This document shows, in pieces, positions 8,745 through 61,707 of a DNA stretch of 64,000 nt. The DNA comes from Promethearchaeota archaeon. Its GTDB lineage: Archaea; Asgardarchaeota; Lokiarchaeia; Sigyniarchaeales; SOKP01. The notes below the pieces were generated by a model, which worked only from the letters and a program-made list of their open reading frames with translations, was not told where the DNA came from and did not search any database. Numbering within the stretch: the stretch's first letter is position 1; each line of letters begins with the position of its first letter. A program made the translations under genes and the position numbers. The DNA is taken from assembly GCA_019058445.1 (NCBI GenBank), contig JAHPZA010000007.1:20129-84128 (forward strand), written 5' to 3'.

Positions 8745-9671
8745 TCATGAAAAGATCTCATTTTGTATCTTTAAGTGGTTGATAAGTTCTTTATAACGAT
8801 TGCGAATAGTGGCCTCAGTTACACCTGCCGCCAAAGAAATTTCTCTTTGTGTCCTACGTTCTCCTTCCTGCATAGCAGCAACATATAAAGCAGCGCCCGC
8901 AAGACCCGTAGGCGCTTTTCCTGCAGTGATACGAAATTTTTTCGCTAATTTTAATATTTCTGCTGCCCTATTTTGGGTACTTCCAGACAGGTTTAATTCT
9001 GCGCAAAATCGAGGTATAAAATTTATGGGAGAAGATACTTTGATGCTTATTCTTAGCTCATTTATAATCAATCTATAACAGCGAGCAATCTTTTTTTTAT
9101 CAACTGAAGCAAATTCAATAAAATCATCGAGCGTTTTAGGAATACTATTTATCCGGCAAGCGGCATATATAGAGGCAATTAGCATTGCTTCAATTGATCT
9201 GCCTCTTATAAGATTTTTATTAGCCATTTTTCGATAAATATGTGCTGAAGATTCTTTTATATCCTTAGATAAATTTAATTGAGAGGCAAATCTATCTAAT
9301 TCATTCATCGCATAAGCTAAGTTTCGATCAATAGACTTATTAGTTCTAGTTCTTACGTGCCATTTTCTTAATCGATATACTTCGGCTTTCATTTTAGGAC
9401 TAATAGATTTTCCAAAAGCATCCTTGTTTTTCCAACCTATCATAGTTGACAATCCTTTATCATGTAATGTGAGAGTTGTAGGGGCTCCGACTCTCACCTT
9501 ATTATTAGCCTCTTCTGCTGAAAATGCCCTCCATTCGGGACCGGAGTCAATGATCTTTTGAGTTAACACCAAACCACAGTCGTTACATATGATTTCGGCT
9601 CGTGAATTATCTAAAATTAAATTATTATTACCACATTCCGGACACAAATTTGTTATATCTTCCGACGTAAT
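8745..9671 (-). CDS. tfb: transcription initiation factor B (possible ATT start at 9671, otherwise TTG at 9647)
   Basis: CPECG/CNDCG zinc ribbon, GPEWRAF, HDKGLST, GVTEATIRNRYKEL. Confidence 0.96.
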   Translation of the reverse strand: MTSEDITNLCPECGNNNLILDNSRAEIICNDCGLVLTQKIIDSGPEWRAFSAEEANNKVRVGAPTTLTLHDKGLSTMIGWKNKDAFGKSISPKMKAEVYRLRKWHVRTRTNKSIDRNLAYAMNELDRFASQLNLSKDIKESSAHIYRKMANKNLIRGRSIEAMLIASIYAACRINSIPKTLDDFIEFASVDKKKIARCYRLIINELRISIKVSSPINFIPRFCAELNLSGSTQNRAAEILKLAKKFRITAGKAPTGLAGAALYVAAMQEGERRTQREISLAAGVTEATIRNRYKELINHLKIQNEIFS

Positions 9672-14358: not shown

Positions 14359-14476
14359 GCGGGAATTGCCAAGTCTGGTTAATGGTGTTTTCGAGCTTTT
14401 TCGAAAGCCGACTTGAGGCGCTGGACTTAGAATCCAGTCTTGTAGAAGTTCGGGGGTTCAAATCCCTCTTCCCGCA
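14359..14476 (+). tRNA. tRNA-Leu(TAG) with D-loop intron (~14383-14415)
   Basis: GCGGGAA/TTCCCGC acceptor, CTGGA-CTTAGAA-TCCAG; hairpin insert before the 3' D-strand. Confidence 0.9.
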
Positions 14477-14648
14477 TAAAAATATTAAAAATGATGAGGG
14501 TAATTATTTTCTTGTTTGAAACTCATAATGGAAAATTTTTAATTTCTTAATTGATTTAAACATCTACCTAGCAAACTAGTTAATTATGATTTTTTTAAAG
14601 GAAAAACCTTAGTTAACTATCATTCTAAAATTTGCTGGTATTTACACA

Positions 14649-14753
14649 GCTCTCGTAGTGTAGCTCGGCCAAAGTCTCCTTGATTCCAAAGGTGACAGCG
14701 AGGCATGCTAGGCTTTCACCCTGGTGACCCGGGTTCAAATCCCGGCGAGAGCA
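14649..14753 (+). tRNA. tRNA-Glu(TTC) with D-loop intron (~14673-14702)
   Basis: GCTCTCG/CGAGAGC acceptor, CTAGG-CTTTCAC-CCTGG, CCGGG-TTCAAAT-CCCGG. Confidence 0.9.
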
Positions 14754-14789
14754 TCCAACGCTTTATGCGTTTATGCATTGGAAAACCAA

Positions 14790-14956
14790 GCCTCCGTAGC
14801 TCAGTTAGGTAGAGCACTGAGTATTAATCATGCTCAGCCCGCCCAAAGCACCCGGCTTTCATAATTGATTACCAGTATGACCGGAAGTTAACCGGGCGGT
14901 CGCATGTTCGATCCATTAGTGATTCGAATTCCGATTCGCTGGATAAGCCGGGGGCG
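14790..14956 (+). tRNA. tRNA-Asn(GTT) with three introns (~14813-14846 D-arm; 14858-14886 at 33/34; 14917-14946 at 63/64)
   Basis: GCCTCCG/CGGGGGC-G acceptor; removing the inserts restores CCCGG-CTGTTAA-CCGGG and GCATG-TTCGATC-CATGC. Confidence 0.85.
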
Positions 14957-15128
14957 TACTTTATTCCCTATTGCTTTTTATTTTAAAAATTTGATCTTTC
15001 CTGCACGACCATCATTTTTTCTTTATATATTTTCAAAATATTCAACAATAAATTTTCTACTTAAAAATAGCATAATAACCATTTCAATCGTAAATTTAGA
15101 GATTAATTCGATATTAATAGGTGATTCA

Positions 15129-15467
15129 ATGGAAGGAGGAAAGAAAGGATATATAGTACTCTGGATATTCATGGGAATAATTTTATTTATAACTATACTT
15201 TATCCCATTTTTGGCATAAATTTAAAATATCAGATTGGAACTGCTATAAGCACAACGCTTATAAAATTAGGAAGCATTTTGATTATGGTAGGGACTATAA
15301 TCCTTATTTTAGGCTTTATTATGTTATTTATCTCTGGGACAGGTTCAGGAGCGTTAAAACCAATGTTAATCGGGTTCTTTTTAATAGTTCTGGGAGTAAT
15401 ACTTATTGATCCGATGGGTACAAGCTATTTCACTCAAGGCAGAGAGGCCCCGAAAGGATATCATTAA
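15129..15467 (+). CDS. small membrane protein with VirB2/CedA-like hairpin (true start ATG 15129)
   Basis: GGTGAT Shine-Dalgarno before MEGGKK; three hydrophobic segments; the longer ORF overlaps tRNA-Asn. Confidence 0.75.
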   Translation: MEGGKKGYIVLWIFMGIILFITILYPIFGINLKYQIGTAISTTLIKLGSILIMVGTIILILGFIMLFISGTGSGALKPMLIGFFLIVLGVILIDPMGTSYFTQGREAPKGYH

Positions 15468-15564
15468 TATTAATTAGAATTATGTTAATTCTGCCTTGAA
15501 TAAAAAATAACATAGTGTTTTTTAGAGATAAAAGTCAAATTCCCACATAAAAAATTCAACAAAT

Positions 15565-15798
15565 TCATACTCTAAAATATCTTAAACCGGTATATAATCC
15601 TGTCATCCACACAAGCATTATACCCGAAACAATAAGTAAAACAGCGTAGCGTTTTGCAAAACGTCCTCCAATAATCAACAATACAAATCCAGCAATAAGG
15701 CCCAAAAAACCTAATAGTGAAGCAAAAGCAATTAAAAATTGAATTGCATCCGCTACTCTTGAAAAATACCCTGTGTAAATCATTTTAAATTTCCTCAT
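15565..15798 (-). CDS. small two-helix membrane protein, VirB2/CedA1 pilin-like
   Basis: hydrophobic helix - GGRFAKRY loop - hydrophobic helix. Confidence 0.7.
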   Translation of the reverse strand: MRKFKMIYTGYFSRVADAIQFLIAFASLLGFLGLIAGFVLLIIGGRFAKRYAVLLIVSGIMLVWMTGLYTGLRYFRV

Positions 15799-15902
15799 AT
15801 TTTAGGGACGCGAAGTATTGTACTTAAGAAGAAGTTAAGTTGAATATATTTAAAAGAAAAATATTGATCTCTTTTAAGTGATATTTCAAACTAATCTGCT
15901 AT

Positions 15903-16700
15903 CTAGTAATATTCGGATAACTTATTATTAACTTTCTCATGAATTTCTCTACAAATATCGGTTTTAATTTCATCTGGCACATATTGCATATAAGATTCTA
16001 CTGTGTGGTTAATAATGGGCTTAATACTGGCCATAAATTTTTCAATTTTGACTTCCTTTGCGAGATATAGTTTTTCGTAAGTATTTATATAGGACCTATT
16101 TAATGTTTTTAGCCAAGTCTGCCCTATAGATTCCAGATTTTTTCTAATTTGAATTGATTTTTTATCATTATAATTTTCAAACACCCAATCATATTTTTCA
16201 AAAACCTCACTAAAATGATCTAAAATGTAGTCCTGAATTCTTAAACTCAAATCGGTATTCGCATTCAAAAAGACGATAATCATGTAATTTTTATCTTGAA
16301 AAAATATTTTTATTTTTATGTTAGTACCGCCAATTCCAACATGCCGCAGATTTTCAATTTTTACATTTTCAGCAAATCCAATCAACGAGCTAAGATACAT
16401 TGAGATAAAATCTGAAAGATCATCCTGATCTTGATTTAAATATTTTTCAATTGGACCAAATCTATTTCTACTATTTCCATCATATTCATATGTTAGTATT
16501 GAGATTCCAGCTTTATTAGATAGTATAATACCGATAATTGGGGGGATTTGATTAAAGTTAAATAAAGATAAAAATGCTCTCCTTGAATTGAGTTCACTTC
16601 CAATAAGAAATTTGTCGTAATCATAAGGAATATTAGAACTATTATCAATAACTGGCAAGTTATTTAGAGGTTTTTCAAACTTATGATCTAATGCTCTCAT
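15903..16700 (-). CDS. longin/roadblock-like domain protein
   Basis: IIGIILSNKAGISIL, helix DFISMYLSSLIGFAE, three strands ending YMIIVFL, helix. Confidence 0.55.
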   Translation of the reverse strand: MRALDHKFEKPLNNLPVIDNSSNIPYDYDKFLIGSELNSRRAFLSLFNFNQIPPIIGIILSNKAGISILTYEYDGNSRNRFGPIEKYLNQDQDDLSDFISMYLSSLIGFAENVKIENLRHVGIGGTNIKIKIFFQDKNYMIIVFLNANTDLSLRIQDYILDHFSEVFEKYDWVFENYNDKKSIQIRKNLESIGQTWLKTLNRSYINTYEKLYLAKEVKIEKFMASIKPIINHTVESYMQYVPDEIKTDICREIHEKVNNKLSEYY

Positions 16701-16893
16701 TGTTGATTAATATAAAATACAAAATTCGCTTATAAGAAGAATAGACAGAAAGTTTTGTAATTTGAAAATCCTATAATTTTTTCGTGAAATGCGGGTTTCA
16801 TGAAGATTTATATATATCCCGATATTACCAATTTAAATTATTTTTGTATGAAGAGTCTTTTTTTTTTAAATATCTTGGATTTAACAATGATTA

Positions 16894-18429
16894 ATGAGAG
16901 CACGTAATAAAACTGTAGTTATGTCAAAGGTTGAAAATTGGATTCAGAAAGGATCAAAATATGTCGAATTAGGTGATTTCAAAAGTGCTATTGAAATTTT
17001 TCAAAAAGGATTAAAAGATGAGCCAGAGAATGAGAAACTTTTACTCAATCTTGGGAATTTATATGATGATATAGGGGATTATAATAAAGCAATTGACGTA
17101 TATAAAAAAATTTTAGGGATGGATGATCAAAATAAAACTGTTTGGTATAATTTAGGAAATTCCTTAAGGAAAAATAAAGAATTTTACTCTGCTATTAAAG
17201 CGTATAAAAGAGTTATTGAAATAGACGTTTACCAATTGAATGCATGGAATAATCTAGGTTGTGTTTATTACGAGATTGGAGAAAAAGAAAATGCTATTGA
17301 TATACTCAAAAAAACTTTAAATGTAGATTCAAATTACAAATTAGCCTGGTATAACCTTGCTTGTATATATTCCCAAATGCGAGAGTATGATAAATCTATT
17401 CAAATTTTTAAAAAAGCAATAGAAATTGATCCAGGATACAAAAAGGCATGGGATAAGCTAGAGATTGTTTATAAGAGAAAAAATGAATTCACATTTGATT
17501 TAAAAAATATAAAAATTCTTAGGGGTGGAGATTGGAAAGTTGAAGGAGATAACAGTATTTTTTATTTTAAAGTAAAAATAATAAATAACTCACAATATCT
17601 TCTTTCTAATATCCAAATAATACTCACTTCAAAACCTAAAGGATTGAAAATAAAACGTGATAGAATTCAAATCGAATCACTTAATCCTCATTCATTTATT
17701 GCTCCAAGATTTAAATTTAAGGCGAAAGAAAGCTGTGTAGGAGAAATAATAAAGGGAATGACATTATTTATTGATTATCTTGGAAATAGTCATACAATTG
17801 AAATTAAACCATTTAGAATAAAGTATGTATGCAATTTGCTTGTCAAGAAAAAAGTTACCAAAGATGTTTTCTATGAAAAAGTATCGAAGATGGATGGCAA
17901 TAGGATATTATTTGATTGTAAAGGCCAAATTGAAGATATAAATAATATAATTTCAGATATTTTAAAAAAAAATAATTTTTATTTATTAAAACAATTACCA
18001 GATTATCAAAAAGGAGGTTATAGAAAATTAGAGGGTTTTGCGCAGGGAAAATATGATAATAAAGAGGTAGCACTAGCGGTTTATTTAGAACAGAAGTTAA
18101 ATGAACATACTCAACTAATAATTGATGCAATGAGTGAAGATAAAGCCAAAACAATCGATATTTTAAGAGATATAAGCTCGCAATGTAATGAGATAAAGAT
18201 TAGTACAGAATTAATTAAGGAATACACATCGAAAATAGAGGAAATATTTGAAAGGGTTGACGATCTCGAGTCTTTTCTGATTAAAAATCTCGGTTCAGAT
18301 TGGACAAAAGTGAGATATGCTTGGCAAGAATATAAAGAAGGTATAATAGACAAAAAACAATTAATTAAAGAATTTATTAAAGTATTAGGCAAAAAATTCA
18401 TTCTAGCTTTAGTTAAGAAGTTTATCTAG
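16894..18429 (+). CDS. TPR-repeat protein with adaptin-appendage-like (Ig plus platform) C-terminus
   Basis: about five TPRs (W.NLG..Y...A...Y/FKK); beta-rich VKIINNS..LSNIQI..IESLNP segment followed by an alpha/beta domain. Confidence 0.75.
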   Translation: MRARNKTVVMSKVENWIQKGSKYVELGDFKSAIEIFQKGLKDEPENEKLLLNLGNLYDDIGDYNKAIDVYKKILGMDDQNKTVWYNLGNSLRKNKEFYSAIKAYKRVIEIDVYQLNAWNNLGCVYYEIGEKENAIDILKKTLNVDSNYKLAWYNLACIYSQMREYDKSIQIFKKAIEIDPGYKKAWDKLEIVYKRKNEFTFDLKNIKILRGGDWKVEGDNSIFYFKVKIINNSQYLLSNIQIILTSKPKGLKIKRDRIQIESLNPHSFIAPRFKFKAKESCVGEIIKGMTLFIDYLGNSHTIEIKPFRIKYVCNLLVKKKVTKDVFYEKVSKMDGNRILFDCKGQIEDINNIISDILKKNNFYLLKQLPDYQKGGYRKLEGFAQGKYDNKEVALAVYLEQKLNEHTQLIIDAMSEDKAKTIDILRDISSQCNEIKISTELIKEYTSKIEEIFERVDDLESFLIKNLGSDWTKVRYAWQEYKEGIIDKKQLIKEFIKVLGKKFILALVKKFI

Positions 18430-18558
18430 ATTTTTTTTTCACTTATATTTTGCCTATTATAGTTTATTTTTAATTTAAAGGATAAATCTTCAATCTAATT
18501 TTTACTAAACTTAGAACTGAAATTTTTAATGTAGATATTATTCTTTATCTAATACGGA

Positions 18559-18577
18559 TTTTGTCGGAGTTTTTATA
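18559..18577 (+). promoter_or_regulatory. TTTTGTCGG motif plus TATA box upstream of the ATPase operon
   Basis: TTTTGTCGG-AG-TTTTTATA, same spacing as at 23558. Confidence 0.55.
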
Positions 18578-18614
18578 TTTAATTCTAAATTATTTTATAA
18601 AATTTAGCAGATTA

Positions 18615-21443
18615 ATGATTTTTTTTTCTAAATATCTTATAATTCTCTTAGGTTTTTTAGTATTTTTTCTTCTCCTAACACCATTCTATTTAAGAATTAA
18701 GGAAAAGAGGGAGAAAACAAGAGCTTATGAACTATATTATTTGTTTCTAGGTATTTTGATATACATTTTTTCTTTTTTAGAAACAGTTATATATCCACTT
18801 TCGGATAATTCACCCTTTCTATTAATAATTGAATTAGAAATGGTTTTCATTTTATTTCTTTTCAACATACTGTATTATTTTAGTCAACAAAACGCTCAAG
18901 ATGAATGGACTACTATTTTATATCTAAGTATTATCATTTTACTTTCTCACATAGTTATTTGTGGAATTTATTTATCATTTTTAGTAGGAACTATTATTTC
19001 TCTTTTCATTGCATTGTTAAGTTTTACTATCATAATTCCATATAATAAGGACTGGAAATTAAGAGGTAATCTCATTATTTTTTCCTTATTAATTTATTAT
19101 TCACTTATAGAAAATATACTCTTTATCTCAATTATTTCATTTTGTATCACTATAACACTTGTTTCCCTTGTACACGATGAGATCCGCTTAAGAATTGTAG
19201 CTGTATATCCGGGATTGATAATAATTCTTAAGCGTATAATCTTTAGACCTAAAATCCTTATGAATAAATTTAGCATTATTTCAGATATAGAAAAACCTAA
19301 GAATTTAAATACAAATAAAAAAGTTAAGTTTTTCCAAGTAAAAGTTAAAATAATCCAGAGAAAACTTGAACAAGAACAAGATCCGTTAAATCTATATCAA
19401 TTGAATGAAAGAAGTTTTTTAATTGATCTTCTCCCAGTAAAAGCCACTTATGTTCTTGAAATTATATCTCATAAAAAATTTTCCTTATCATTTATAACAA
19501 AACATAGGAATAAAGAAAAAGCTCACGAACAAGGTTTAACGATATTAACTAAATTAAAAAGTCTTTATGAGGGAATTGATGGGGAAATAAGCGTTATTAA
19601 AATCTCTAGCAAGGAAATCTACAAAAAGGATCGATATTGGGAAATTAAAATCCCCAAACCACCATTCATAGAGAAAATGACGTTTATTAGGGATATTATA
19701 AATCTTTTTGATTTAAATGAAGAAAAAATAGAGATTTATATCATGTGGAAGCGAGTCTCATCATTAAACCAATTTAGAATAAAAAAAATACGAGAGGATG
19801 TAAGAAATATAAAATTTAATGATGCAGATGAGAAGGAGAATTTCTTAGAAATGTGGCAAGGAGATCTTTATAAATTGAGAATTTTTTTCACTTTCAAAGT
19901 CTTTGAAAAAGATGTCAGATTAAGAAATCAAAAAATCCGAGAAATTGAAGCCATGCTAAAGACTCTCGCTATGTCAAGTAGAAATGAGACTAAGATAGCT
20001 AAAATTAAAAAAGCTTCACCTTTTGCAAATGCAAACATCATAAGTAATAGATTATATGGAGGTCGCTATATAACATCTAAAAGCTTGGACTTTGATGTTC
20101 TTCATGGAATTCCTTTACCTCGATCTTACGCATTGGAAGATGAGAATATTATTAATTTGGATGTAGAAGACCATGATTTAAATTATATTTTAATTGGAAA
20201 TTATATTAGAAATGGACGGGTTTCAGAAAAAAAGATTCCAATTCATAAAAATATATTTAGTCAATCAGTTTTAATAGGTGGGCAACCGGGTTCAGGAAAG
20301 ACTTACCTTTTGAGCCAAATTACAAAAGAATTTTATACCAAATGTCCAGATATTGGGATAATGATTATTAATTTAGGAAAAGGGAATCAAGAATTACTTT
20401 ACAAATTTGATAAAATTTATAAATATGGGAAATCAAATTTAAGAGTTCCTTATTTTATCAGGGGAAAATTTCCAAGAAGGAGTTTACAAGAAACTGCTAA
20501 GTATTTAGTTGCTGCGGTTGGGTTAAAAAACATTGTTGAGATAAATATGTTTAATGTAATGCAATTATTTGAACAAAAAAGGGGACAGCCCAAAACTGCT
20601 AAAGTACTTTTTAATAATTTATTAAAATACTTTGAATTTCGACCATATCATTCCAAATTTCAAACAAATATCATAAGAGCGATAGAAAATCGAGTTCTGA
20701 GTATGTTATCAGATATGAGACTAGAAAAAACATTAGAATTATATAATAATCCCTATAAAATGCCATCATGGTTTGAGGAATGGCGAAAGGGTAAAAAAGT
20801 ATATATTGATTTATCTAGTTGCACAATCTATGAAAAAAGACTATTATGTAATGCAATTTTTCAAATTGTTCGATCTTGTGTACCAGATAAGGAGGAAGGT
20901 AATCTAAAAAACATCATTCTTCTAGATGAAGCACATCAAATCTTAGAAAAGCCTTCTTTACCTGCTGATCCTGACGATGATGATTATATTAGCAGACAAT
21001 CGTTAAAGGATATTTTTAATGAATTATTAAGGGAATTTCGTTCTAAGGGCGTTTCATTTATAATATCAGACCAAACACCATATACTTTATTCGATTGTGC
21101 GACAATATTGCCCAGTTTAAAATTTCTTTTCAGATTAGGACATTTATCGGCGTCTATTATGGGTTCAAATGAAAAAGAAGAAGCTCTTTTACCAGAACAA
21201 GAAAATAGACATTTTATCGTAGTAAACGGTGTAACTGGCGAAAAATATAGAGGAAAAACTCTTGATTTGCCCATTCCAACAAGATTATATAATAAAAGGA
21301 AGCAATTTGAAAGGGAATATGAAAATACAAACAAATTTTGTCAATTTTGTCATCAGATCATAGATATTGATGCTGTTTTCTGTCATAGATGTGGGAGCAA
21401 ATTAATTTATGATACCTTTATAAATTCAAATTCAAAATTATAG
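18615..21443 (+). CDS. membrane-anchored HerA/FtsK/VirB4-superfamily ATPase (likely start ATG 18615)
   Basis: about six N-terminal TM helices; GQPGSGKT, IILLDEAH, REFRSKG...DQTP; C-terminal CxxC..CxxC ribbon. Confidence 0.88.
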   Translation: MIFFSKYLIILLGFLVFFLLLTPFYLRIKEKREKTRAYELYYLFLGILIYIFSFLETVIYPLSDNSPFLLIIELEMVFILFLFNILYYFSQQNAQDEWTTILYLSIIILLSHIVICGIYLSFLVGTIISLFIALLSFTIIIPYNKDWKLRGNLIIFSLLIYYSLIENILFISIISFCITITLVSLVHDEIRLRIVAVYPGLIIILKRIIFRPKILMNKFSIISDIEKPKNLNTNKKVKFFQVKVKIIQRKLEQEQDPLNLYQLNERSFLIDLLPVKATYVLEIISHKKFSLSFITKHRNKEKAHEQGLTILTKLKSLYEGIDGEISVIKISSKEIYKKDRYWEIKIPKPPFIEKMTFIRDIINLFDLNEEKIEIYIMWKRVSSLNQFRIKKIREDVRNIKFNDADEKENFLEMWQGDLYKLRIFFTFKVFEKDVRLRNQKIREIEAMLKTLAMSSRNETKIAKIKKASPFANANIISNRLYGGRYITSKSLDFDVLHGIPLPRSYALEDENIINLDVEDHDLNYILIGNYIRNGRVSEKKIPIHKNIFSQSVLIGGQPGSGKTYLLSQITKEFYTKCPDIGIMIINLGKGNQELLYKFDKIYKYGKSNLRVPYFIRGKFPRRSLQETAKYLVAAVGLKNIVEINMFNVMQLFEQKRGQPKTAKVLFNNLLKYFEFRPYHSKFQTNIIRAIENRVLSMLSDMRLEKTLELYNNPYKMPSWFEEWRKGKKVYIDLSSCTIYEKRLLCNAIFQIVRSCVPDKEEGNLKNIILLDEAHQILEKPSLPADPDDDDYISRQSLKDIFNELLREFRSKGVSFIISDQTPYTLFDCATILPSLKFLFRLGHLSASIMGSNEKEEALLPEQENRHFIVVNGVTGEKYRGKTLDLPIPTRLYNKRKQFEREYENTNKFCQFCHQIIDIDAVFCHRCGSKLIYDTFINSNSKL

Positions 21444-21456
21444 TAGGTAATATATT

Positions 21457-22143
21457 ATGAGTGAAATAAATAGTGATGAATATGAGGAATACGAGGAATA
21501 TGAAGGAGAGCAAGATGAATCAGAAGAAAATGAACAAAATAAAGAACTTCAAGTGGATTATGGATATGATCAAGAAAAAGAACAAGAAGATAAACTTAAA
21601 GTAGATTATGGATACGATCAAGAAAAAGAACAAGAAGATAAGCTCCAAGTAGATTATGGATGCGATCAACAAGAAGAACAAAAAAAAAAAGATCATATTG
21701 ATAAAAAAAATAATGAAATAAGATCAGAAGAAGATAAATTCAAATCAGAAAAAGGAGCTTTATTTGGAGGAGAAAAATCGAAGGAGAATTTATACAAGAC
21801 TAATAATAATATTACAGAAAAGGATAAAATTAAGGATTTAGAAGAAAAAAAAAATGAGTCAGAAAACAAAATAAAAAACCAGAAAAAACAAAGTTCTAAA
21901 GATAAAAGGGGTAAAAGAGGTAAAAGAGGCAGAAGAGGCAAGCGTGGACGTCGAGGGAAGAGTGGTAAGTCTAAAGGAGGTATGTTAGATTTTAGAACAT
22001 TAAAAAAAGAGAAAAAGGAAGAGAAGAAAAAACGAGGAGTATTTAAGAAAACAGAGGAAGAAATAAAAGAAGAAATTAGAAAAGAAATATATAAACAACT
22101 TCAAGATGAACAAATTAAGAGAAAGGCAGGTATATTAAGATGA
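21457..22143 (+). CDS. low-complexity bipolar (acidic N / basic C) repeat protein
   Basis: E/D-rich N-terminus, 16-aa repeats, G[KR]R triplets; 13 nt after the ATPase gene. Confidence 0.8.
   Translation: MSEINSDEYEEYEEYEGEQDESEENEQNKELQVDYGYDQEKEQEDKLKVDYGYDQEKEQEDKLQVDYGCDQQEEQKKKDHIDKKNNEIRSEEDKFKSEKGALFGGEKSKENLYKTNNNITEKDKIKDLEEKKNESENKIKNQKKQSSKDKRGKRGKRGRRGKRGRRGKSGKSKGGMLDFRTLKKEKKEEKKKRGVFKKTEEEIKEEIRKEIYKQLQDEQIKRKAGILR
21547..21681 (+). repeat. 48-bp coding tandem repeat, ~2.8 copies (L[QK]VDYG[YC]DQEKEQEDK)
   Basis: units start at 21547, 21595 and 21643. Confidence 0.9.
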
Positions 22144-23045
22144 AAAGAGGTCAATCTGTTTCAGAGGGATTAAAGCAATACAAAAAAACGATGTCAGAAA
22201 AATTTAGTGATTGGAAAGAAGATTCTTATGGGCCTTGGAAAGAAGAGACCTATAAGCCATGGAAAAAAGAATTTTCTAAGAATGTGAAACGATTTAATAA
22301 ACAATTCAAAAAGATGCTTGTCCGTTGGAAGAGGAATATGTTAGAAAAATATAAGCAATGGCGTAAGAATAAGGTAAAAAGAGAAGCAGGGTTGCAGATA
22401 AAAATAAAAAACATAGAAAAGGTGGAAATAGGGAATAAAAAGATCAATTACCATAATCATCTCAATTATTTCCCTTCAAATGAGGGGCCTACAGAATTTG
22501 AGTATCAGAATATTCGAGAGAGAAATACGTTTCCTGTAAGAAATCAATATCCGGAAATTGAAGATCGATATTATTATGAGAAAACTGCATACAATTTGGA
22601 TGAAGATATTAGATCACAGAAATATTTAGGATATGATCGAGGAAAGGGAATTCAAAAAAATGTTGATTTTAATAGTTTATTTCGGGATTTTGCCCTAATT
22701 CAGGATTTACTGAGAACGAAATCACATCAAGAAATTTTTATTAAATGTCGTTATTTAATTGAGTCTTTTCTCGAGAAAATTGCGGATATGATTGGAATTC
22801 AATATAGAAATGTCCAACATTTCTTAGCAAGCTTAACAAATATGAATCTTAAGAGAAAATTCATATTCTATGATGAGATTATTGGGTATACTAAGTTTTT
22901 AAATGCAAATCTACATAATGTAGATAGGTTCATGGCTCACTCAATTTATATCCTTACGAAAAGAATTATTAACAAATTAGAAAGCATTTTGAGTAGAAAA
23001 TCGAATAATAATTTTTATTCAGAATATGGAGAAATCTTTCATTAA
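22140..23045 (+). CDS. Trp-periodic amphipathic N-terminus plus degenerate HEPN/DUF4145-like C-terminus
   Basis: ATGA overlap with the upstream gene; WKEDSYGP-WKEETYKP-WKK; CRYLIESFL...FLNANLH. Confidence 0.65.
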   Translation: MKRGQSVSEGLKQYKKTMSEKFSDWKEDSYGPWKEETYKPWKKEFSKNVKRFNKQFKKMLVRWKRNMLEKYKQWRKNKVKREAGLQIKIKNIEKVEIGNKKINYHNHLNYFPSNEGPTEFEYQNIRERNTFPVRNQYPEIEDRYYYEKTAYNLDEDIRSQKYLGYDRGKGIQKNVDFNSLFRDFALIQDLLRTKSHQEIFIKCRYLIESFLEKIADMIGIQYRNVQHFLASLTNMNLKRKFIFYDEIIGYTKFLNANLHNVDRFMAHSIYILTKRIINKLESILSRKSNNNFYSEYGEIFH

Positions 23046-23160
23046 TACTCAACTGATTCAATTCAATTTTTTTTATTACTTATCTTTAAAGCTTGTTGTA
23101 GTTTAAATAATTTAAATCCAAATATAGAGTATATTATTTAGCTAAAATTATCAGATTATT

Positions 23161-23496
23161 ATGACTCAAGAATATAAAAATTGTCCTCGTTGCAATGGGA
23201 AGAAGATTGTAGATTTAGATAACAAAATAAAATGTTTAGATTGTAAGTTAACGTTTGATAAAAAAATCATTAAGTTAATTGAAGATAAAGCATATATCTT
23301 GGCAAATGAGGAAAATGAGGAAATTCTTAAGGAAATATTAGATTCTAAAAATATTAATGAATTTATAGATTTGTTAAATGAAGTTGATGGAAATTTTTCA
23401 CACTGCCCCTATTGTTTTGGAAAAATAGAAAAACAGCTTAAAATTTGTCCCTCTTGCGGAATTTTCTTAGAAGATTATGCAAAAATTAAGAATTAG
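23161..23496 (+). CDS. double zinc-ribbon protein
   Basis: four CxxC pairs. Confidence 0.75.
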   Translation: MTQEYKNCPRCNGKKIVDLDNKIKCLDCKLTFDKKIIKLIEDKAYILANEENEEILKEILDSKNINEFIDLLNEVDGNFSHCPYCFGKIEKQLKICPSCGIFLEDYAKIKN

Positions 23497-23557
23497 CAAA
23501 ATTATGATAATTTATACTAATTTAGAATTTTAAATTTTCTTTCCAATGTAACACTAG

Positions 23558-23576
23558 TTTTGTCGGGATTTTTATA
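23558..23576 (+). promoter_or_regulatory. TTTTGTCGG motif plus TATA box; probable leaderless transcript
   Basis: TTTTGTCGG-GA-TTTTTATA ending ~21 nt before ATG 23598. Confidence 0.55.
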
Positions 23577-23597
23577 GCTATATTTAGAACTAAATCG

Positions 23598-24212
23598 ATG
23601 ATATCTCAGGAAAATTCAGATTCTTCGGACCCATTTTCCGTTTTTCAATCGGTAAATGACGCCATAGTGGGAATATTAGTCCCATTTAACGAGATTTGTA
23701 TCAATATTTTTCGTTTTGGAAACTGGATTTTATTTCTTATTTTTATATTTTTAGGAGTAAATCTATTAATGAGTGCCCATGAAAAAGAAACTGAAGAAAG
23801 AATTCACGGAAAAAACTTAGAGTATATTCAAAAAAGAGGTCGTATTGGATCTTTTATTTTAATTTTAATAGCCATTGGTTTCTTATTCAAAGGACTAACG
23901 ATACTAACGATAATTAGCTTTAGTTCATTTTCAGCTCCGCCCGTTTTTCGATGGCTAAAATGTCAATATCTATATAATAATATAAGTACGTTAGAGGACC
24001 TGAAAAAGTATGATGTCTTTGAAGTAAGTTTATTTCTATTTATTAGTTTAGTGTCTTTCATTTCAATAATTCTAATTAGTTTTGGTATTTATCTTCTTCT
24101 TTTTAATAAGAGAATTCTTAGAACACATTATAAAGCTTGTTCATTCATTGTTATTGGAGTTATTTTAGCTTGTATCTTTGGGATTACTCCAGGATTACTC
24201 CTAACTTTGTGA
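23598..24212 (+). CDS. 4-TM membrane protein (two hairpin units); paralog of 27684..28301
   Basis: shared AIG, PPxF, KYxxFE, SF, NxRI and FG motifs. Confidence 0.8.
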   Translation: MISQENSDSSDPFSVFQSVNDAIVGILVPFNEICINIFRFGNWILFLIFIFLGVNLLMSAHEKETEERIHGKNLEYIQKRGRIGSFILILIAIGFLFKGLTILTIISFSSFSAPPVFRWLKCQYLYNNISTLEDLKKYDVFEVSLFLFISLVSFISIILISFGIYLLLFNKRILRTHYKACSFIVIGVILACIFGITPGLLLTL

Positions 24213-24251
24213 GATGTTCATAAAGGAATTATGATTTAAAGCTTAATATAA

Positions 24252-24776
24252 TTATGATTTTAATTGTTTTTCATATAAATCTTTGATATATTCATTTAAT
24301 TCTTTAAATTTCATTTCATTAATCGTCGTTAATTTATCTTCTTCCCAGTTAAAGGTAGTCATACTCTTATCTGGTTTATGGTTGAATTCTAAATCTTCAT
24401 ACTTAGGTACAAAATCCTCATTAAAATCCTCTTGATCCTTAAATTCATCATCTTCTTCTATAGTGTTATCAATTGCCTCATATTCACTAAAAGATAACCT
24501 TTTTAGAAAAAAATATACTAAAATACAAAGAAAGATAAACACAAGATTACTTGGAATTACTGTTTCTGAGGTTAAAATTACATCTGTTTTATTATACAAA
24601 TTAGGAAGTGAATTTAGGATATAAAAACTCACTGATAACAATATTAACACAGTTATTACGAGCTTTAATCTGTGAAATGTAGGTTGATAAGCTTGAACTT
24701 TATAGAAAACGGCTATTGAAATAGCTAAAGCTGTAGTTAAAATAACAAATGTTAAAAATAATTCGAATGTGACCAT
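24252..24776 (-). CDS. 3-TM membrane protein with acidic tail
   Basis: three hydrophobic segments followed by an E/D-rich C-terminus. Confidence 0.75.
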   Translation of the reverse strand: MVTFELFLTFVILTTALAISIAVFYKVQAYQPTFHRLKLVITVLILLSVSFYILNSLPNLYNKTDVILTSETVIPSNLVFIFLCILVYFFLKRLSFSEYEAIDNTIEEDDEFKDQEDFNEDFVPKYEDLEFNHKPDKSMTTFNWEEDKLTTINEMKFKELNEYIKDLYEKQLKS

Positions 24777-25062
24777 CTCTATCTTTTTCTCTTTATGATC
24801 CTATAAATCGCCTTATCGATATCAATTAATTATTTAAAATTAAGTATAAAAAGTTCGAGATTTATCCATGGCAGTTATAAAAAGTAAGTAAATTTACTAA
24901 ACCAGTTTTTTTTTTAAATTGAGAAATTTATATTTTTATAAGATTAGACTAATTAGATCTTTTTGTCGATAATACTTCGATTTTATAATTTTCATTTTAT
25001 TATTTTACAAATGAGCTAACAGTGAGATTAAATAGATTACATAGTTTTAAGTAATAAGCAAA

Positions 25063-26589
25063 TTAATCTTTAAAATAATTAAAAATAACTTTAAGAATTA
25101 AGTCTTTAAAACATTTTAACACTTTTTCCCCTTCTAACGCGCATACTGGATACACTACTAAAGAACCATCAGGATATTTAATTTCGTTAGGTAGATTTAA
25201 GATTCTTTTAAATATATCTAATGAAATCGCATTATCTAAATCTCTCTTATTTAGTTGCACGTTTATAGGGACTCTGAGATGTCCAATGGTATTTATTAGT
25301 TCCTGAAAGCTTTGTTTGTTTTGTTCCATCTTGGAAGGATCAGAATCACCTATAAAAATCACTCCGTCAGCGCCCTCAAGGATCCGCCTGCGAGCTACCG
25401 AAAAATTTTCAAGGGCAGGAACAGTTACAATTTGAATAATTACCCCATATTTAGTATCCTCAATTTCAAACTTTAATAAAATATACTGAGAATCATGCCA
25501 CAGTGTTGAACCGTTAGTGGTTTCAATGGAATATCCTTTGGTTAAATTCATAGATGAAAATTTTTTTTGTAGTAACTTAAAATTAGAGGTTTTTCCGGAT
25601 TTAGAAGGGCCCCAAAAAATTATTCTAAATTGTAGGATTTCATCACAATTTTTTAAGCTTCGATTATCTTTAGCTTTTTCAATTTCATGATCTATATACT
25701 TAGTTAATTCTTTATATCGTTTCCTAATCGTAGCTTCGGTTACTCCAGCTGCTAAAGAAATTTCTTTTTGGGTTCTTCGTTCTCCCTCCTGTAGCGCAGC
25801 AAAATAGAGTGCCCCCCCAGCAAGCCCAGCAGGAGTTTTTCCGGCGGTGAGTCGATACTTTTTTGCTAAATTTAATATTTTCGTGGCACGATTTTTCGTA
25901 TTTTCTGAGAGATTAAGATTAGCTGCAAATTTGGGAATATAACTTAAAGGTGAACTTGCATTAAGATTTAGCTTTAATTCTCTGAAGACAAGTCTATAAC
26001 ACCGGGCTAGTTTTTTTTTCTCAATAGCAGTAAATTCCAAAAAGTCTTCAATAATTTTGGGGACATTATTAATTTTGCATGCTGTATAAATTGAAGCTAT
26101 CACAATGGCCTCAATGGATCGACCTTTAGCAAGATGCATTACTTTTCTATAAATATGAGCTGAAGATTCCTTTAGATATTTTGGCAAATTCATTTGAGAT
26201 GAGATTCTGTCTAATTGAGTCATTGCTTCCGCTAAGTTTTTCTCTTTAGGCGTATAAATCATCGATCTTTTATTCCAAGTTCTTAGCCTTTTGATTTCTC
26301 CAATCATTTTCGGACTAATTTTGTTCCCTTTAGCATCTCGATTCGATTTTCCAATGACCGTGTTTAAACCTTTATCATATTGCATTAAATTCGTTGGAGC
26401 TCCGATTCTAACTTTTTTTGCCTTATCTTCTGAGTTAAAAGCACGCCAATCAACCCCAGAATTAATAAGATGTTGCTTAATTACCAATCCACATGCGTTA
26501 CAAATGATTTCGCCGCGAAAAGCATCATTTATTAATATTTCATTCCCACATTCAGGACATATATCTGAAACTTTTTCTGCGACATTCAT
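25063..26589 (-). CDS. TFB fused to C-terminal MglA/Arf-like small GTPase domain
   Basis: complete TFB (CPECG, DWRAF, GVTEATIRKRYKEL) then GPSKSGKT, GADGVIFIGDS, NKRD, CA in one frame. Confidence 0.9.
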   Translation of the reverse strand: MNVAEKVSDICPECGNEILINDAFRGEIICNACGLVIKQHLINSGVDWRAFNSEDKAKKVRIGAPTNLMQYDKGLNTVIGKSNRDAKGNKISPKMIGEIKRLRTWNKRSMIYTPKEKNLAEAMTQLDRISSQMNLPKYLKESSAHIYRKVMHLAKGRSIEAIVIASIYTACKINNVPKIIEDFLEFTAIEKKKLARCYRLVFRELKLNLNASSPLSYIPKFAANLNLSENTKNRATKILNLAKKYRLTAGKTPAGLAGGALYFAALQEGERRTQKEISLAAGVTEATIRKRYKELTKYIDHEIEKAKDNRSLKNCDEILQFRIIFWGPSKSGKTSNFKLLQKKFSSMNLTKGYSIETTNGSTLWHDSQYILLKFEIEDTKYGVIIQIVTVPALENFSVARRRILEGADGVIFIGDSDPSKMEQNKQSFQELINTIGHLRVPINVQLNKRDLDNAISLDIFKRILNLPNEIKYPDGSLVVYPVCALEGEKVLKCFKDLILKVIFNYFKD

Positions 26590-26753
26590 TATAACTAACT
26601 TTTAACATCATATAAAATAGAAATTATAAAAAATACACGAAAATAGGTTAGACATCCAGGCTTTATTAAATTCAAGAAAATGTTTGTATAAAAACAAGTC
26701 ACTAGAAAAAGTTTAAAATTTTTTCTTTAAATAGGCTTAAAATACAGAAGGAT

Positions 26754-27161
26754 ATGATTAAGACTGAAATAAGATATGAAAAATCGCTTGGAAGACTGAA
26801 ATGTGATATTTGTGACACTAGATTTCGAGAAAACGCAAGGATTTATAAAGTTAATAATGACATAGGGTATGTTTGCCAACAATGCAATGATAATTTTTCT
26901 AAGGAAGATATATATCTGATTATAGACTTGTTTAAATCTTATGGCGGGTATTTTGGGAAATTCGATGATATAAAATTATCCTTAGATAATATTTTAACGG
27001 AATTTTATGATAGAATTTCGGCTGACGGTAATTTAAAAAACACTTTCGAATATAATAGGAAATTATGTCATAAAGCACTGCTAAATGGCTATACCCCTAA
27101 ACAGCTTATTCAAAAAATGAAAGTTCCAAAAAATTATAAACTTAAAAAACGCACCATTTAG
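26754..27161 (+). CDS. zinc-finger hypothetical protein
   Basis: CDIC and CQQC pairs; divergent from the TFB-GTPase gene. Confidence 0.7.
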   Translation: MIKTEIRYEKSLGRLKCDICDTRFRENARIYKVNNDIGYVCQQCNDNFSKEDIYLIIDLFKSYGGYFGKFDDIKLSLDNILTEFYDRISADGNLKNTFEYNRKLCHKALLNGYTPKQLIQKMKVPKNYKLKKRTI

Positions 27162-27347
27162 ATAGATATTGCTTGCTTAAATCACTAGACCTGTGAACTC
27201 ATATAAATTAAATTACCAATAAAATTTGGTTTGATACCCCTTTTGACAGAAATATTTGAGTTTAAATAATCATCAAAACAAATATTGATAGTTTAAATTA
27301 GATTTGAATATTTAAAAGTTCAAATTTAACTTTTATGGTGGGAGAAT

Positions 27348-27599
27348 ATCTCAAAATCAATCAATTTTCATGACTTAATTGAATCAGAAAAGATCTTACC
27401 TCCAATACAATTTAAATTGATTAAAGCCTTAATATTTAAAGGACCATTAACGAGAAAAGAATTATCAATTGAGCTCAATATTCCTCGGAGTACCATTTAC
27501 GACAATTTAAAGAAACTTGAAAAGCGGAACGTTGTTATAAAATACATATTAATAGAAGGTAAACAAGGGCGTCCTCCTGTCTTTTGGCAAATCAAATGA
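27348..27599 (+). CDS. small winged-HTH (TrmB-like) regulator; probably starts upstream of TTG 27417 (e.g. ATC 27348)
   Basis: LTRKELS..LNIPRSTIYDNL..L, GRPPVFW; paralog of 36402. Confidence 0.75.
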   Translation: MSKSINFHDLIESEKILPPIQFKLIKALIFKGPLTRKELSIELNIPRSTIYDNLKKLEKRNVVIKYILIEGKQGRPPVFWQIK

Positions 27600-27683
27600 A
27601 CTCAAAATTAGTTTTAACTAATTATCTTTTATTTTTTTTTAGTTTAAATAATTACTTTACAAATTAAAAATGAGGTATTTAAT

Positions 27684-59830: not shown

Positions 59831-60520
59831 ATGGTTCGATGGACAGCAGATCATAATGTGTATATAAAAATACTTTATTGGGGAATGGGAGGGTCAGGAA
59901 AAACAACAGTTGTGGATACATTATATAGACTAACAAAAGACCAAAAGCAAGATATTGAACCTACGGGAAATTTGACAAAAATTGCAATGGCTAGTGGCTC
60001 AACTTTATATTTTGATCGTGGTATTTTTCGTTCTACAAAGCAGACAAAGGTTTTCTATCACGTATACACCGTTGCTGGTCAAAGTAGGTTTTCTCCTTTA
60101 AGAAAAAAAATATTTAAAGGGACAGATGGAGTTATTTTTGTAGTTGATTCCCAAACTCATTTTTTTGAAGATAATATTGAATCGTTAAAAGAATTAAAGA
60201 ATATTACACGGGGGCAATTAATTACGGAAATTCCGCTGATTTTGATGATTAATAAACAGGATCTTTCTGAAGTAATTGGAGAGGAAGATTTTAAACAAGT
60301 TTTAAAAGATGAAAAGCTTTGGTTTGAACCGGACCATGAGTTATATATTTGGAATCCGATAATTTATAAAACATGTGCTTTATATGAAAAACAGCAAGGT
60401 ATTATCAGAAGTTTTTCTGAATGTGCAAGAAGGACAGGACTCTATCAAATATATGGAAATGGGAAAGCACCGGTAGGAGATAACTTCTTGAAAATATCTA
60501 AAGAAATACCTGATCTTTGA
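59831..60520 (+). CDS. MglA/Arf-like small GTPase
   Basis: GMGGSGKTT, TLYFD, TVAGQ, NKQD, TCA. Confidence 0.9.
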   Translation: MVRWTADHNVYIKILYWGMGGSGKTTVVDTLYRLTKDQKQDIEPTGNLTKIAMASGSTLYFDRGIFRSTKQTKVFYHVYTVAGQSRFSPLRKKIFKGTDGVIFVVDSQTHFFEDNIESLKELKNITRGQLITEIPLILMINKQDLSEVIGEEDFKQVLKDEKLWFEPDHELYIWNPIIYKTCALYEKQQGIIRSFSECARRTGLYQIYGNGKAPVGDNFLKISKEIPDL

Positions 60521-61095: not shown

Positions 61096-61707
61096 TTAGA
61101 GGGTTTGATTTACTTTTACATTTAGTTGAGGAAAAATAAAGCTAATTAATTGTTGAAAGGAATCTAAAACTCCTACACCTTCAGTTGCTATTGTTTCATT
61201 AAATGAGATATGACTAAATTTTTCTGATTCAATAAATTTAATAAAAAGATCTCTATCTAGTTTTTCTCCATTATTCAAATCATACTTGTTAAAGGATACA
61301 ACTAGAGGGATATTATAAAATTCGGGGCCGAATAATGTTCTCAATTCATTCCAAGATCTAATATTATGCTCAAGATATTTAATTTGAGAATCAGCAATAA
61401 AAATTATACCATCCACTCCATTTAACGTAGCTGGGCGAGTACTAGCATAAAAATCTTGCCCTGTGGCTGTGTATAATAGGAATTTTAAACCCCACACAGC
61501 ACCTTTAAATTGTAAAACACCAAAATCAAAAAACAGAGTTCTTCCCACTGAATTTTCGATAGATTCCAACCCATTGTCTTTTCCAAAATAAGAGAAAAGA
61601 TATCTTAGTGACGTAGTCTTACCAGACATCGCCGGTCCATAATATACACACTTTACTTGAACTAATTTATTTTCATAATCTAATAACATAGTATAGTTTA
61701 ACCCCAT
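61096..61707 (-). CDS. MglA-like small GTPase
   Basis: KCVYYGPAMSGKTT, RTLFFDF, TATGQ, NKYD, IAT. Confidence 0.92.
   Translation of the reverse strand: MGLNYTMLLDYENKLVQVKCVYYGPAMSGKTTSLRYLFSYFGKDNGLESIENSVGRTLFFDFGVLQFKGAVWGLKFLLYTATGQDFYASTRPATLNGVDGIIFIADSQIKYLEHNIRSWNELRTLFGPEFYNIPLVVSFNKYDLNNGEKLDRDLFIKFIESEKFSHISFNETIATEGVGVLDSFQQLISFIFPQLNVKVNQTL

Follow-up and report, generated by a model that had tools for sequence, protein, structure and literature searches.

A transcription factor B paralogue fused to an MglA-type G domain that lacks the MglA catalytic residues, encoded in an accessory block of a Promethearchaeota genome

Haloarchaea have multiple alternative paralogues (Tfbs) of transcription factor B (TFB), and nucleotide-binding, catalytically inactive "pseudoGTPases," such as the Rnd proteins and RhoH, occur as free-standing members of the eukaryotic Rho family. 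Sulfolobus TFB2 is reported to drive cell-cycle transcription (bioRxiv 10.64898/2026.09.06.749720). Asgard viruses and mobile genetic elements (MGEs) are reported to carry TFB homologues and many Zn-finger proteins (Medvedeva et al., 10.1101/2021.07.29.453957), and fusions of Asgard small GTPases with a longin or a roadblock domain have been described (Tran et al. 2024, PMC10933270). In MglA, two residues are catalytic, the switch-I arginine (the intrinsic arginine finger) and the glutamine of the G3 motif (PMC10933270). Here, we analyzed a window of 64,000 nucleotides of a Promethearchaeota archaeon (assembly GCA_019058445.1, contig JAHPZA010000007.1, positions 20,129 to 84,128) and describe one of its genes, P0001, which encodes a TFB that continues in frame, through a short linker, into an MglA-type G domain in which both of these residues are replaced. 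No TFB-GTPase fusion was described in the full-text literature searched; what is new is the covalent combination of a known factor with a known G domain, and this combination has a narrow distribution.

The fusion is one open reading frame (ORF) of 508 amino acids (aa) without an internal stop (Table 1). A region-restricted search of 5.8 billion protein clusters, together with an exhaustive HMMER pass over 1.84 billion representatives, revealed that it belongs to a small family. Three further full-length fusions were recovered from the clusters (ENA, JGI, and an NCBI metagenome-assembled genome [MAG] labeled Ca. Hermodarchaeota) and a fifth, P0005, from the HMMER pass, where it was the only other cluster with the fusion architecture among the best 150 matches. 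The original prediction, made from the DNA letters, had proposed a search for the same architecture in other Asgard genomes; in all, five contigs (two from ENA, one from JGI, the NCBI MAG, and this genome) carry it, with 49 to 90% identity, each as an uninterrupted gene, and no member has lost or truncated the G domain. The contigs of P0004 and P0005 measure 5.6 and 1.7 kb. Public annotations of these homologues read simply TFIIB. Within the phylum, the fused frame is present in 2 of 400 species genomes, this one and G172 of the same genus, so that the finding is limited to a narrow clade of five sequences.

Both halves of the protein are under purifying selection. Using the Nei-Gojobori method at unsaturated distances, we obtained dN/dS ratios of 0.063 for the TFB half and 0.181 for the G half against P0002, and of 0.091 and 0.180 against P0003, the value of about 0.18 for the G half being computed over 188 codons. 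The linker, 16 to 20 aa long, is 100% identical between P0001 and P0002 at a dS of 0.57, and its second half matches the N-terminal extension of the free-standing GTPase family from which the G half derives. The original prediction was to fall if the fusion proved unique with unconstrained halves, or if a stop codon or a misassembly lay at the junction; instead, there are five members in which both halves bear the marks of selection, and the frame runs uninterrupted on five contigs. Read support over the junction, which it had also called for, is partial. A 22-kb contig assembled separately from run X1 (depth 28) contains the whole ORF with 0 differences, X1 possibly being the source sample, and runs X2 to X4 gave just short low-depth contigs, none of them bridging 25540-25731, the uncovered part being uninformative.

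The TFB half is complete and resembles the canonical TFB at 8745, as had been claimed (61% identity), including the stretch GERRTQ[KR]EISLAAGVTEATIR[KN]RYKEL. The Pfam TFIIB family PF00382 matches it in two stretches up to aa 297 (123.8 bits, cutoff 23.6). The NCBIfam TFIIB model PRK00423 aligns over its full length (positions 10-311 of 312, matched by aa 5-304) with a score of 354.2 bits, under the whole-protein cutoff of 384; this shortfall reflects divergence, as no part is missing. All four aligned fusions, and P0005 as well, have the Zn-ribbon cysteines C11, C14, C30, and C33. The B-reader/B-linker aligns without gaps with canonical TFBs, retaining WRAF, RxGxP, and DKGL, and is modeled as flexible (pLDDT <50), as expected of a free TFB. 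By Foldseek, the cyclin core superposes on that of P. woesei TFBc (1d3u_B) with a TMt of 0.85, an rmsd of 2.1 Å, and 43% identity, and the C-terminal helix-turn-helix that reads the TFB recognition element (BRE), GVTEATIRKRYKEL, is present.

Several changes distinguish the fused TFBs. Lys290, beside a conserved Arg, replaces the Asn of the genus's canonical TFB (TIRNRYKEL) in all five fusions. Among the paralogues of this genome with a readable motif, no other has a Lys there; more generally, the Lys is not unique, 8 of 111 matched TFB representatives having it. Also fixed in the five fusions are a 2-aa deletion in cyclin repeat 1, the change of LAGAALY to AGGA, and, in the B-linker, the replacement of FGK by GN. 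All sequence and fold features tested, bar the strict PRK00423 cutoff, thus place the fusion in the TFB family, and it is a lineage-specific paralogue retaining every hallmark of a working TFB.

The G half had been labeled MglA/Arf-like, and the Arf part of this label is wrong. In a phmmer search of the PDB, the best match was T. thermophilus MglA (3t12_A, E = 2.8e-19 over 182 residues), versus 7.6e-5 for an Asgard ArfR and 7e-4 or worse for Arf-family matches. Foldseek likewise ranked MglA above Arf and Rab (TMt of 0.83 for 6izw_A and 0.85 for 3t12_A; E of 2.9e-14 for MglA versus 4.6e-9 for the Asgard ArfR), its best matches being forms of MglA bound to MglB and a GTP analogue. The nearest solved relatives of the domain are the MglA proteins of Thermus and Myxococcus. 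Since Arf and Rab score far lower, we assign the domain to the MglA type. Membership of the Arf family was also rejected because the N-terminus of the domain is the TFB linker and offers no free amphipathic helix. A Pfam Arf match at aa 405-498 (37.1 bits, cutoff 22.3) covers model positions 80-171 only.

The motifs quoted in the original prediction (GPSKSGKT, STLWHD, TVPAL, NKRD, and CA) were all found and located (Table 1), and the GTPase at 61096..61707, which is 31% identical to the C-terminal 190 residues of the fusion, carries GRTLFFD and TATGQ at the aligned positions, as stated there. G1 (GxxxxGKT), the G2 Thr, G4 (NKxD), and G5 (xAL) are present in all five fusions; the first residue of G3 is a Thr in four of them and a Ser in one (TVPGQ in the aligned MglA). 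Ser361 of the fusion aligns with Arg53, the intrinsic arginine of MglA. Listed over the five fusions, this position is S, S, S, K, S; the G3 Gln position is L, F, F, I, N; and the G3 Gly position is A, A, A, G, G. With G1, the switch-I Thr, G4, and G5 preserved under selection, the domain probably retains its ability to bind guanine nucleotide. The Arg and the Gln, which MglB only positions, are gone from five of five fusions and the Gly from three of five, so that hydrolysis by the MglA mechanism, whether intrinsic or stimulated by MglB, would be beyond it. The loss of Arg and Gln therefore points to a GTP-locked or slowly exchanging "pseudo-switch" and not to a cycling one, and an MglA-style hydrolysis cycle is unlikely. 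On these grounds, the G half seems to be a derived, catalytically disabled offshoot of MglA that fails two of its defining catalytic features.

Phylogeny points to a single origin. In a maximum likelihood tree, the fused TFB halves are monophyletic (100/99) and attached to the clade of the genus's canonical TFB; their stem measures 0.37 and their internal branches are long, compared with branches of about 0.01 for the canonical copies. The G halves are monophyletic as well (98/99), within a clade of free-standing GTPases of 210 to 220 aa. A duplicate of the canonical TFB was thus fused with a duplicated copy of a free-standing MglA-like gene, after which both halves evolved fast while staying under purifying selection. 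This genome has about 13 TFB genes, and P0001 is the sole fused one.

This genome has two members of the free-standing GTPase family (53 to 55% identity), and of the 134 other genomes in the taxonomic family, 95 encode it as well. All 12 orthologues fetched carry GPGESGKT, GRTLW[QE]D, and VTCTGQERF, and among further database relatives, none of them more than 56% identical to the fused domain, GQ is kept in 48 of 48 and GRTLW in 46 of 48. As no free-standing degenerate copy was found, the catalytic loss is a trait of the fused lineage, and the replacement of both residues that had been noticed in this gene proves to be real and restricted to the fused clade.

Directly upstream of the free-standing GTPase, at all 12 loci, lies a gene for a 183-aa protein, with gaps of -17 to 161 nucleotides (nt), mostly 5 to 27. 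The protein is not recognized by Pfam, and its profile matched nothing among the PDB sequences. It aligned over the whole roadblock core with the Robl_LC7 proteins of this genome (hhalign, 92% probability, E = 5e-7) and resembles roadblock clusters by language-model (Atlas) features. As a divergent roadblock protein, it makes the parent of the G half a member of an MglA-like/MglB-like operon. The copies of this operon at L004 (4810..6029; G000:C9:393809-395028) and L005 (4799..6014; C9:567298-568513) encode GTPases of 213 to 216 aa with invariant GPGESGKT, GRTLWxD, and VTCTGQERF, and their 183-aa partners have a long C-terminal helix.

An AlphaFold2 model of the full-length protein was built on a 40-row alignment. 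The pLDDT exceeds 90 in the cyclin core and is mostly 85 to 93 in the G domain, with switch I disordered; the helix at aa 285-310 continues from cyclin repeat 2, and the linker block has a pLDDT of 63. We also modeled the G domain with two copies of the 183-aa protein, using our own alignments. The docking score was 0.83 versus 0.44 for the best of three controls and may reflect memory of solved MglA/MglB complexes; among solved complexes, 58 of 80 attain the mark used, compared with 2 of 110 mismatched pairs. At least 71% of contacts are shared between runs, with a partner pLDDT of at least 83, and the predicted interface, which is MglA/MglB-like, comprises the end of the linker, switches I and II, and the C-terminal helix, together with the C-terminal helix of the partner. 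This score speaks for the likeness of the predicted complex to MglA/MglB, not for binding by this copy.

Table 1. Positions of the fusion gene, its domains and motifs, and related features in the window
Feature	Position	Strand	Details
Whole fusion gene (P0001)	25063..26589	-	508 aa: TFB, linker, and MglA-type G domain
TFB Zn ribbon	26437..26562	-	aa 10-51; Pfam PF08271 (Zn_Ribbon_TF), E = 2.4e-13, 49.8 bits versus a cutoff of 29
B-reader/B-linker region	26275..26436	-	aa 52-105; alignment to canonical TFBs
Two cyclin-fold TFIIB repeats	25690..26274	-	aa 106-300; Pfam PF00382, E = 2.9e-36
BRE-reading helix TEATIRKRYKEL	25705..25740	-	aa 284-295; alignments
Linker HEIEKAKDNRSLKNCD	25642..25689	-	aa 301-316; alignments
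MglA-type G domain	25066..25641	-	aa 317-508; PDB phmmer, Foldseek, model
G1 P-loop GPSKSGKT	25588..25611	-	intact in 5/5 fusions
Switch I GSTLWHD	25492..25512	-	Ser361 at the intrinsic-Arg position; Mg-binding Thr retained
G3/switch II TVPAL	25411..25425	-	Ala392-Leu393 in place of the Gly-Gln of TxxGQ
G4 NKRD, guanine-specificity motif	25240..25251	-	intact in 5/5 fusions
G5 CAL	25135..25143	-	xAL in all fusions and free-standing copies
Canonical TFB of the genus	8745..9647	-	closest paralogue and apparent parent of the TFB half, 61% identity
135-aa Cys4 Zn-ribbon gene	26754..27161	+	upstream of the fusion, opposite strand; multicopy family
Accessory block, ~12.7 kb	14957..27683		missing from the syntenic site of G174 and G175; right edge approximate

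The original prediction spoke of a surrounding island, and this was a fair description. In two genomes of the same genus, G174 and G175, about 315 bp separate the DNA matching the window up to 14956 from the gene that follows it, the orthologue of the 27684 membrane gene. The intervening ~14,957-27,683 is therefore an accessory block, missing from the same site in both genomes, whose right edge lies upstream of this conserved 205-aa membrane gene. In addition to the fusion, the block contains a 265-aa ORF, a TPR protein, a membrane-anchored HerA/VirB4-like ATPase (18615..21443), several small membrane proteins, a small HTH protein, and, on the strand opposite to the fusion, the Cys4 Zn-ribbon gene. 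No tRNA, Rfam family, integrase, capsid gene, or viral family or hallmark was found in the block, and IMG/VR held no viral contig encoding a relative of the fusion.

A candidate promoter motif recurs in the block. TCGRRNTWTWTATA occurs 13 times in 4.6 Mb, four of these within the block; TCG at -6 to -4 of TWTWTATA, a feature defined post hoc, accompanies 0.7% of sites genome-wide versus 4 of 25 in the block. TCGRRN precedes TWTWTATA in the block at 16822 (-), 18564 (+), 23563 (+), and 24858 (-), and at 3460 (+) in L002. The site ahead of a 174-aa gene is conserved in the contig of a close relative. The TTG-start ORF listed for the ATPase would place the 18564 site 3 nt within the gene, so that the ATG at 18615 is probably the true start.

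The Zn-ribbon gene neighbors the fusion, on the opposite strand, in all four loci with upstream sequence (43 to 71% identity). It was rejected as a fusion-specific partner, the family being multicopy in 88 of the 135 genomes of the taxonomic family. Its members, of about 130 aa, combine a Cys4 Zn ribbon with a helical domain and include paralogues at G000:C4:234447-234800 and C9:551029-551358. They recur near MglA-like genes as well as beside the fusion: in genus g12, a copy lies about 1.3 to 2 kb downstream of a free-standing MglA-like gene on the same strand (for example, G239:C129, G265:C288, and G263:C104), and in genus g11, a copy lies about 12 kb from the MglA-like gene.

The family of the block's ATPase is patchy, multicopy, and often pseudogenized (57 of 135 genomes); a TFB paralogue lies within about 9 kb of an ATPase homologue in 4 of 10 fetched loci. 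A search for related loci seeded with this ATPase returned no match. One of the four fetched loci with a nearby TFB, L051 (G211:C116:31000-50900), encodes homologues of the 265-aa ORF, the HTH protein, and the HerA-like ATPase, along with an MglA-like GTPase and a 326-aa TFB as separate genes. These counterparts lie unfused within 19 kb, with Zn-ribbon paralogues about 4 kb beyond. The L051 GTPase carries GPAMSGKT, RRTLFFD, and TTTGQD, and the parallel is loose because this GTPase is of the 61096 type, not of the fusion's parent type.

Other genes in the window touch on the same families. The gene at 59831..60520 (+), which adjoins the canonical MglA-like gene at 61096, encodes an MglA-like GTPase of 229 aa with a Ser at the intrinsic-Arg position (SGSTLYFD) and the Gly-Gln of G3 retained (TVAGQ). 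The TTG start of the canonical TFB (8745..9647) opens the protein at MCPEC, and its genus orthologues are about 7 to 9 residues longer at the N-terminus; the true start is probably upstream, at a codon not counted as a start by the ORF lister. Other long TFBs were considered as G-domain fusions and rejected, the nine scanned carrying an extra cyclin repeat or unrelated tails. Among long TFBs, P0009, P0018, P0025, P0031, P0081, and P0152 (428 to 538 aa) have a third TFIIB/cyclin repeat or another C-terminal tail, so the TFB C-terminus evidently tolerates additions. Just left of the block boundary, at ~14,360-14,956, stretches of 60 to 190 nt match many contigs of all genomes of the genus at 80 to 97% identity. 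ARAGORN found no tRNA there, and no Rfam family reached the gathering score; these stretches may represent a dispersed repeat, tRNAs that are atypical or contain an intron, or small RNAs of another kind.

The original prediction proposed that the fusion is a basal transcription factor gated by a nucleotide switch or localization module. Part of this interpretation stands, since the fusion is genuine, its halves are constrained, and the catalytic residues are lost; the nucleotide switch is the part that has become the less likely reading, in comparison with a GTP-locked docking module or a nucleotide sensor. The reading that we put forward, with a confidence a little short of even, is that of an island-borne alternative TFB whose GTP-locked G domain would be a docking or regulatory module, an MglB-like dimer being the first candidate for its partner. 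The fusion would serve accessory genes as an alternative factor for initiation, the genes of its own island being the most plausible targets, and the G domain would be a constitutive module held in its GTP form by a roadblock platform, for which the MglB-like dimer of the parent operon comes first to mind. The availability or location of the TFB would then be tied to the MglA/MglB-type module and the GTP supply of the cell, and not to a hydrolysis cycle of its own. We are more doubtful of the fuller proposal that the GTP-locked domain tethers a promoter-selective TFB to a roadblock platform, so that host GTPase/roadblock signaling switches initiation in the accessory block.

Several observations weigh against such a role. 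No roadblock gene adjoins the fusion at any locus examined, and conservation between fused and free domains is no higher at the predicted MglB contacts than elsewhere (0.45 versus 0.54); the partner may have changed. The replacement of the G3 Gly by Ala could also disturb the GTP-induced conformational change. The full-length AlphaFold2 model has a pTM of 0.47, so that no fixed arrangement of both domains is predicted. As for the island, the word denotes a variable block and no more than a possible mobile element, its own sites served to define the promoter motif, which nothing ties to the fused TFB, and the four closest orthologues of the ATPase have no TFB in the flanks fetched.

Before function is weighed, it may be asked whether the protein exists. 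The window does come from a MAG, and runs X2 to X4 gave fragments only, as an assembly chimera or two genes misread as one would allow. Nevertheless, this explanation is effectively refuted by the recurrence of the uninterrupted frame and the conserved linker on five contigs of different projects, by the 22-kb contig that spans the gene without differences, although possibly from the source sample, and by purifying selection across the junction. Nor does the G domain look like a mere passenger, a decaying or purely structural appendage (serving, for example, dimerization or solubility) on one more TFB paralogue. Its catalytic residues are gone, its G3 varies among members (A-L, A-F, A-F, G-I, and G-N), it evolves about twice as fast as the TFB half, and C-terminal additions, for instance, a third cyclin repeat, are tolerated in other TFBs. 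However, a dN/dS of about 0.18 over 188 codons speaks for clear purifying selection, the domain was never lost or truncated, and the persistence of G1, the G2 Thr, G4, and G5 in five members that are about 50% identical overall argues for retained nucleotide binding. We therefore consider a passenger very unlikely.

Two further explanations give the G domain an activity of its own. As a self-contained nucleotide sensor, it would read GTP/GDP levels and, by way of the conserved linker, mask or unmask the TFB core or its DNA/TBP surface in cis, in which case initiation by the fused TFB would report the energy or GTP status of the cell. The intact, constrained binding motifs and the loss of the hydrolysis residues are what an equilibrium sensor needs, the linker is the best-conserved stretch among close members and is predicted to extend the last cyclin helix, and no partner gene is adjacent. 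Small GTPases, however, hold their nucleotide so firmly that a sensor would normally depend on an exchange factor; moreover, AlphaFold2 gives no confident interdomain packing, to judge from the pTM and the low pLDDT of the linker block, the parent family works with a roadblock partner, and predicted docking with the 183-aa protein exceeds the controls. We regard the sensor as unlikely. The G domain could alternatively be a decoy or anti-regulator that soaks up the host's MglB-like GTPase-activating protein (GAP) or another MglA effector, with the TFB providing expression, stability, or a DNA tether; the island would then rewire the host MglA module. A hydrolysis-dead MglA on its GAP would form a long-lived complex, the docking score, possibly owed to memory of solved MglA/MglB complexes, is compatible with one, and the gene sits in an accessory block. 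Yet it is the TFB half that is the more constrained (dN/dS of 0.06 to 0.09 versus 0.18), it retains a Zn ribbon, a B-reader, and a BRE helix that a mere tether would not need, and the interface residues are not specially conserved, so that a decoy seems quite improbable. The docking of an alternative TFB through its GTP-locked G domain remains our preferred reading.

Small GTPases with roadblock or longin regulators are among the most discussed eukaryote-like traits of Asgard archaea. A selected fusion of a G domain with a TFB offers a concrete, testable output for Asgard GTPases, transcription initiation, by giving a direct physical link between parts of GTPase signaling and the start of transcription. 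It is also a clean natural example of a switch GTPase turning into a hydrolysis-dead module after fusion. The fusion, its active free-standing paralogue, the MglB-like partner, TBP, and the candidate promoters constitute a set of reagents for biochemistry that needs no cultured organism. If the tethering reading were true, the fusion would represent the first direct covalent link of the Ras superfamily to the basal transcription machinery, in the lineage closest to eukaryotes, and a possibly mobile block would be under host small-GTPase/roadblock control.

The known systems each share part of this organization. Like the TFBs of Asgard viruses and MGEs, the fused TFB has Zn-finger and HTH proteins for neighbors in accessory DNA, where one would expect an initiation factor specific to the element; in contrast to them, it has no IMG/VR relative, and no integrase or capsid gene was found in its block. 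Medvedeva et al. (10.1101/2021.07.29.453957) mention no G-domain fusion, the word "GTPase" occurring 0 times. The fusions of Tran et al. 2024 likewise have Asgard GTPase modules, which are often built into larger proteins; there, however, the partners are longin and roadblock domains only, and "TFIIB" is absent from PMC10933270. With the alternative TFBs of other archaea, the fusion shares being a fast-evolving duplicate, one of about 13 TFB genes, with all TFB modules retained, which makes a promoter-class-specific role plausible, whereas the haloarchaeal Tfbs and Sulfolobus TFB2 are not known to have a G domain.

The MglA/MglB systems of T. thermophilus and M. xanthus (3T12, 3T1Q, 6IZW, and 6H5B) provide the best sequence and fold match for the G half. 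As in MglA, a Thr and not an Asp opens the fusion's G3. The gene from which the G half derives has a roadblock partner with a C-terminal helix, and the predicted 1:2 complex is MglA/MglB-like in geometry. The fusion differs in that its arginine finger and Gln are replaced, no roadblock gene is adjacent, and the G domain forms the C-terminus of a transcription factor. Finally, a functional analogy may be drawn with Rnd and RhoH: the intact binding motifs and the substituted Gln position would, by this analogy, predict a constitutively GTP-bound protein regulated by its abundance, location, or partners. Unlike these free-standing proteins, the module described here is an archaeal MglA-type domain joined to a basal transcription factor.

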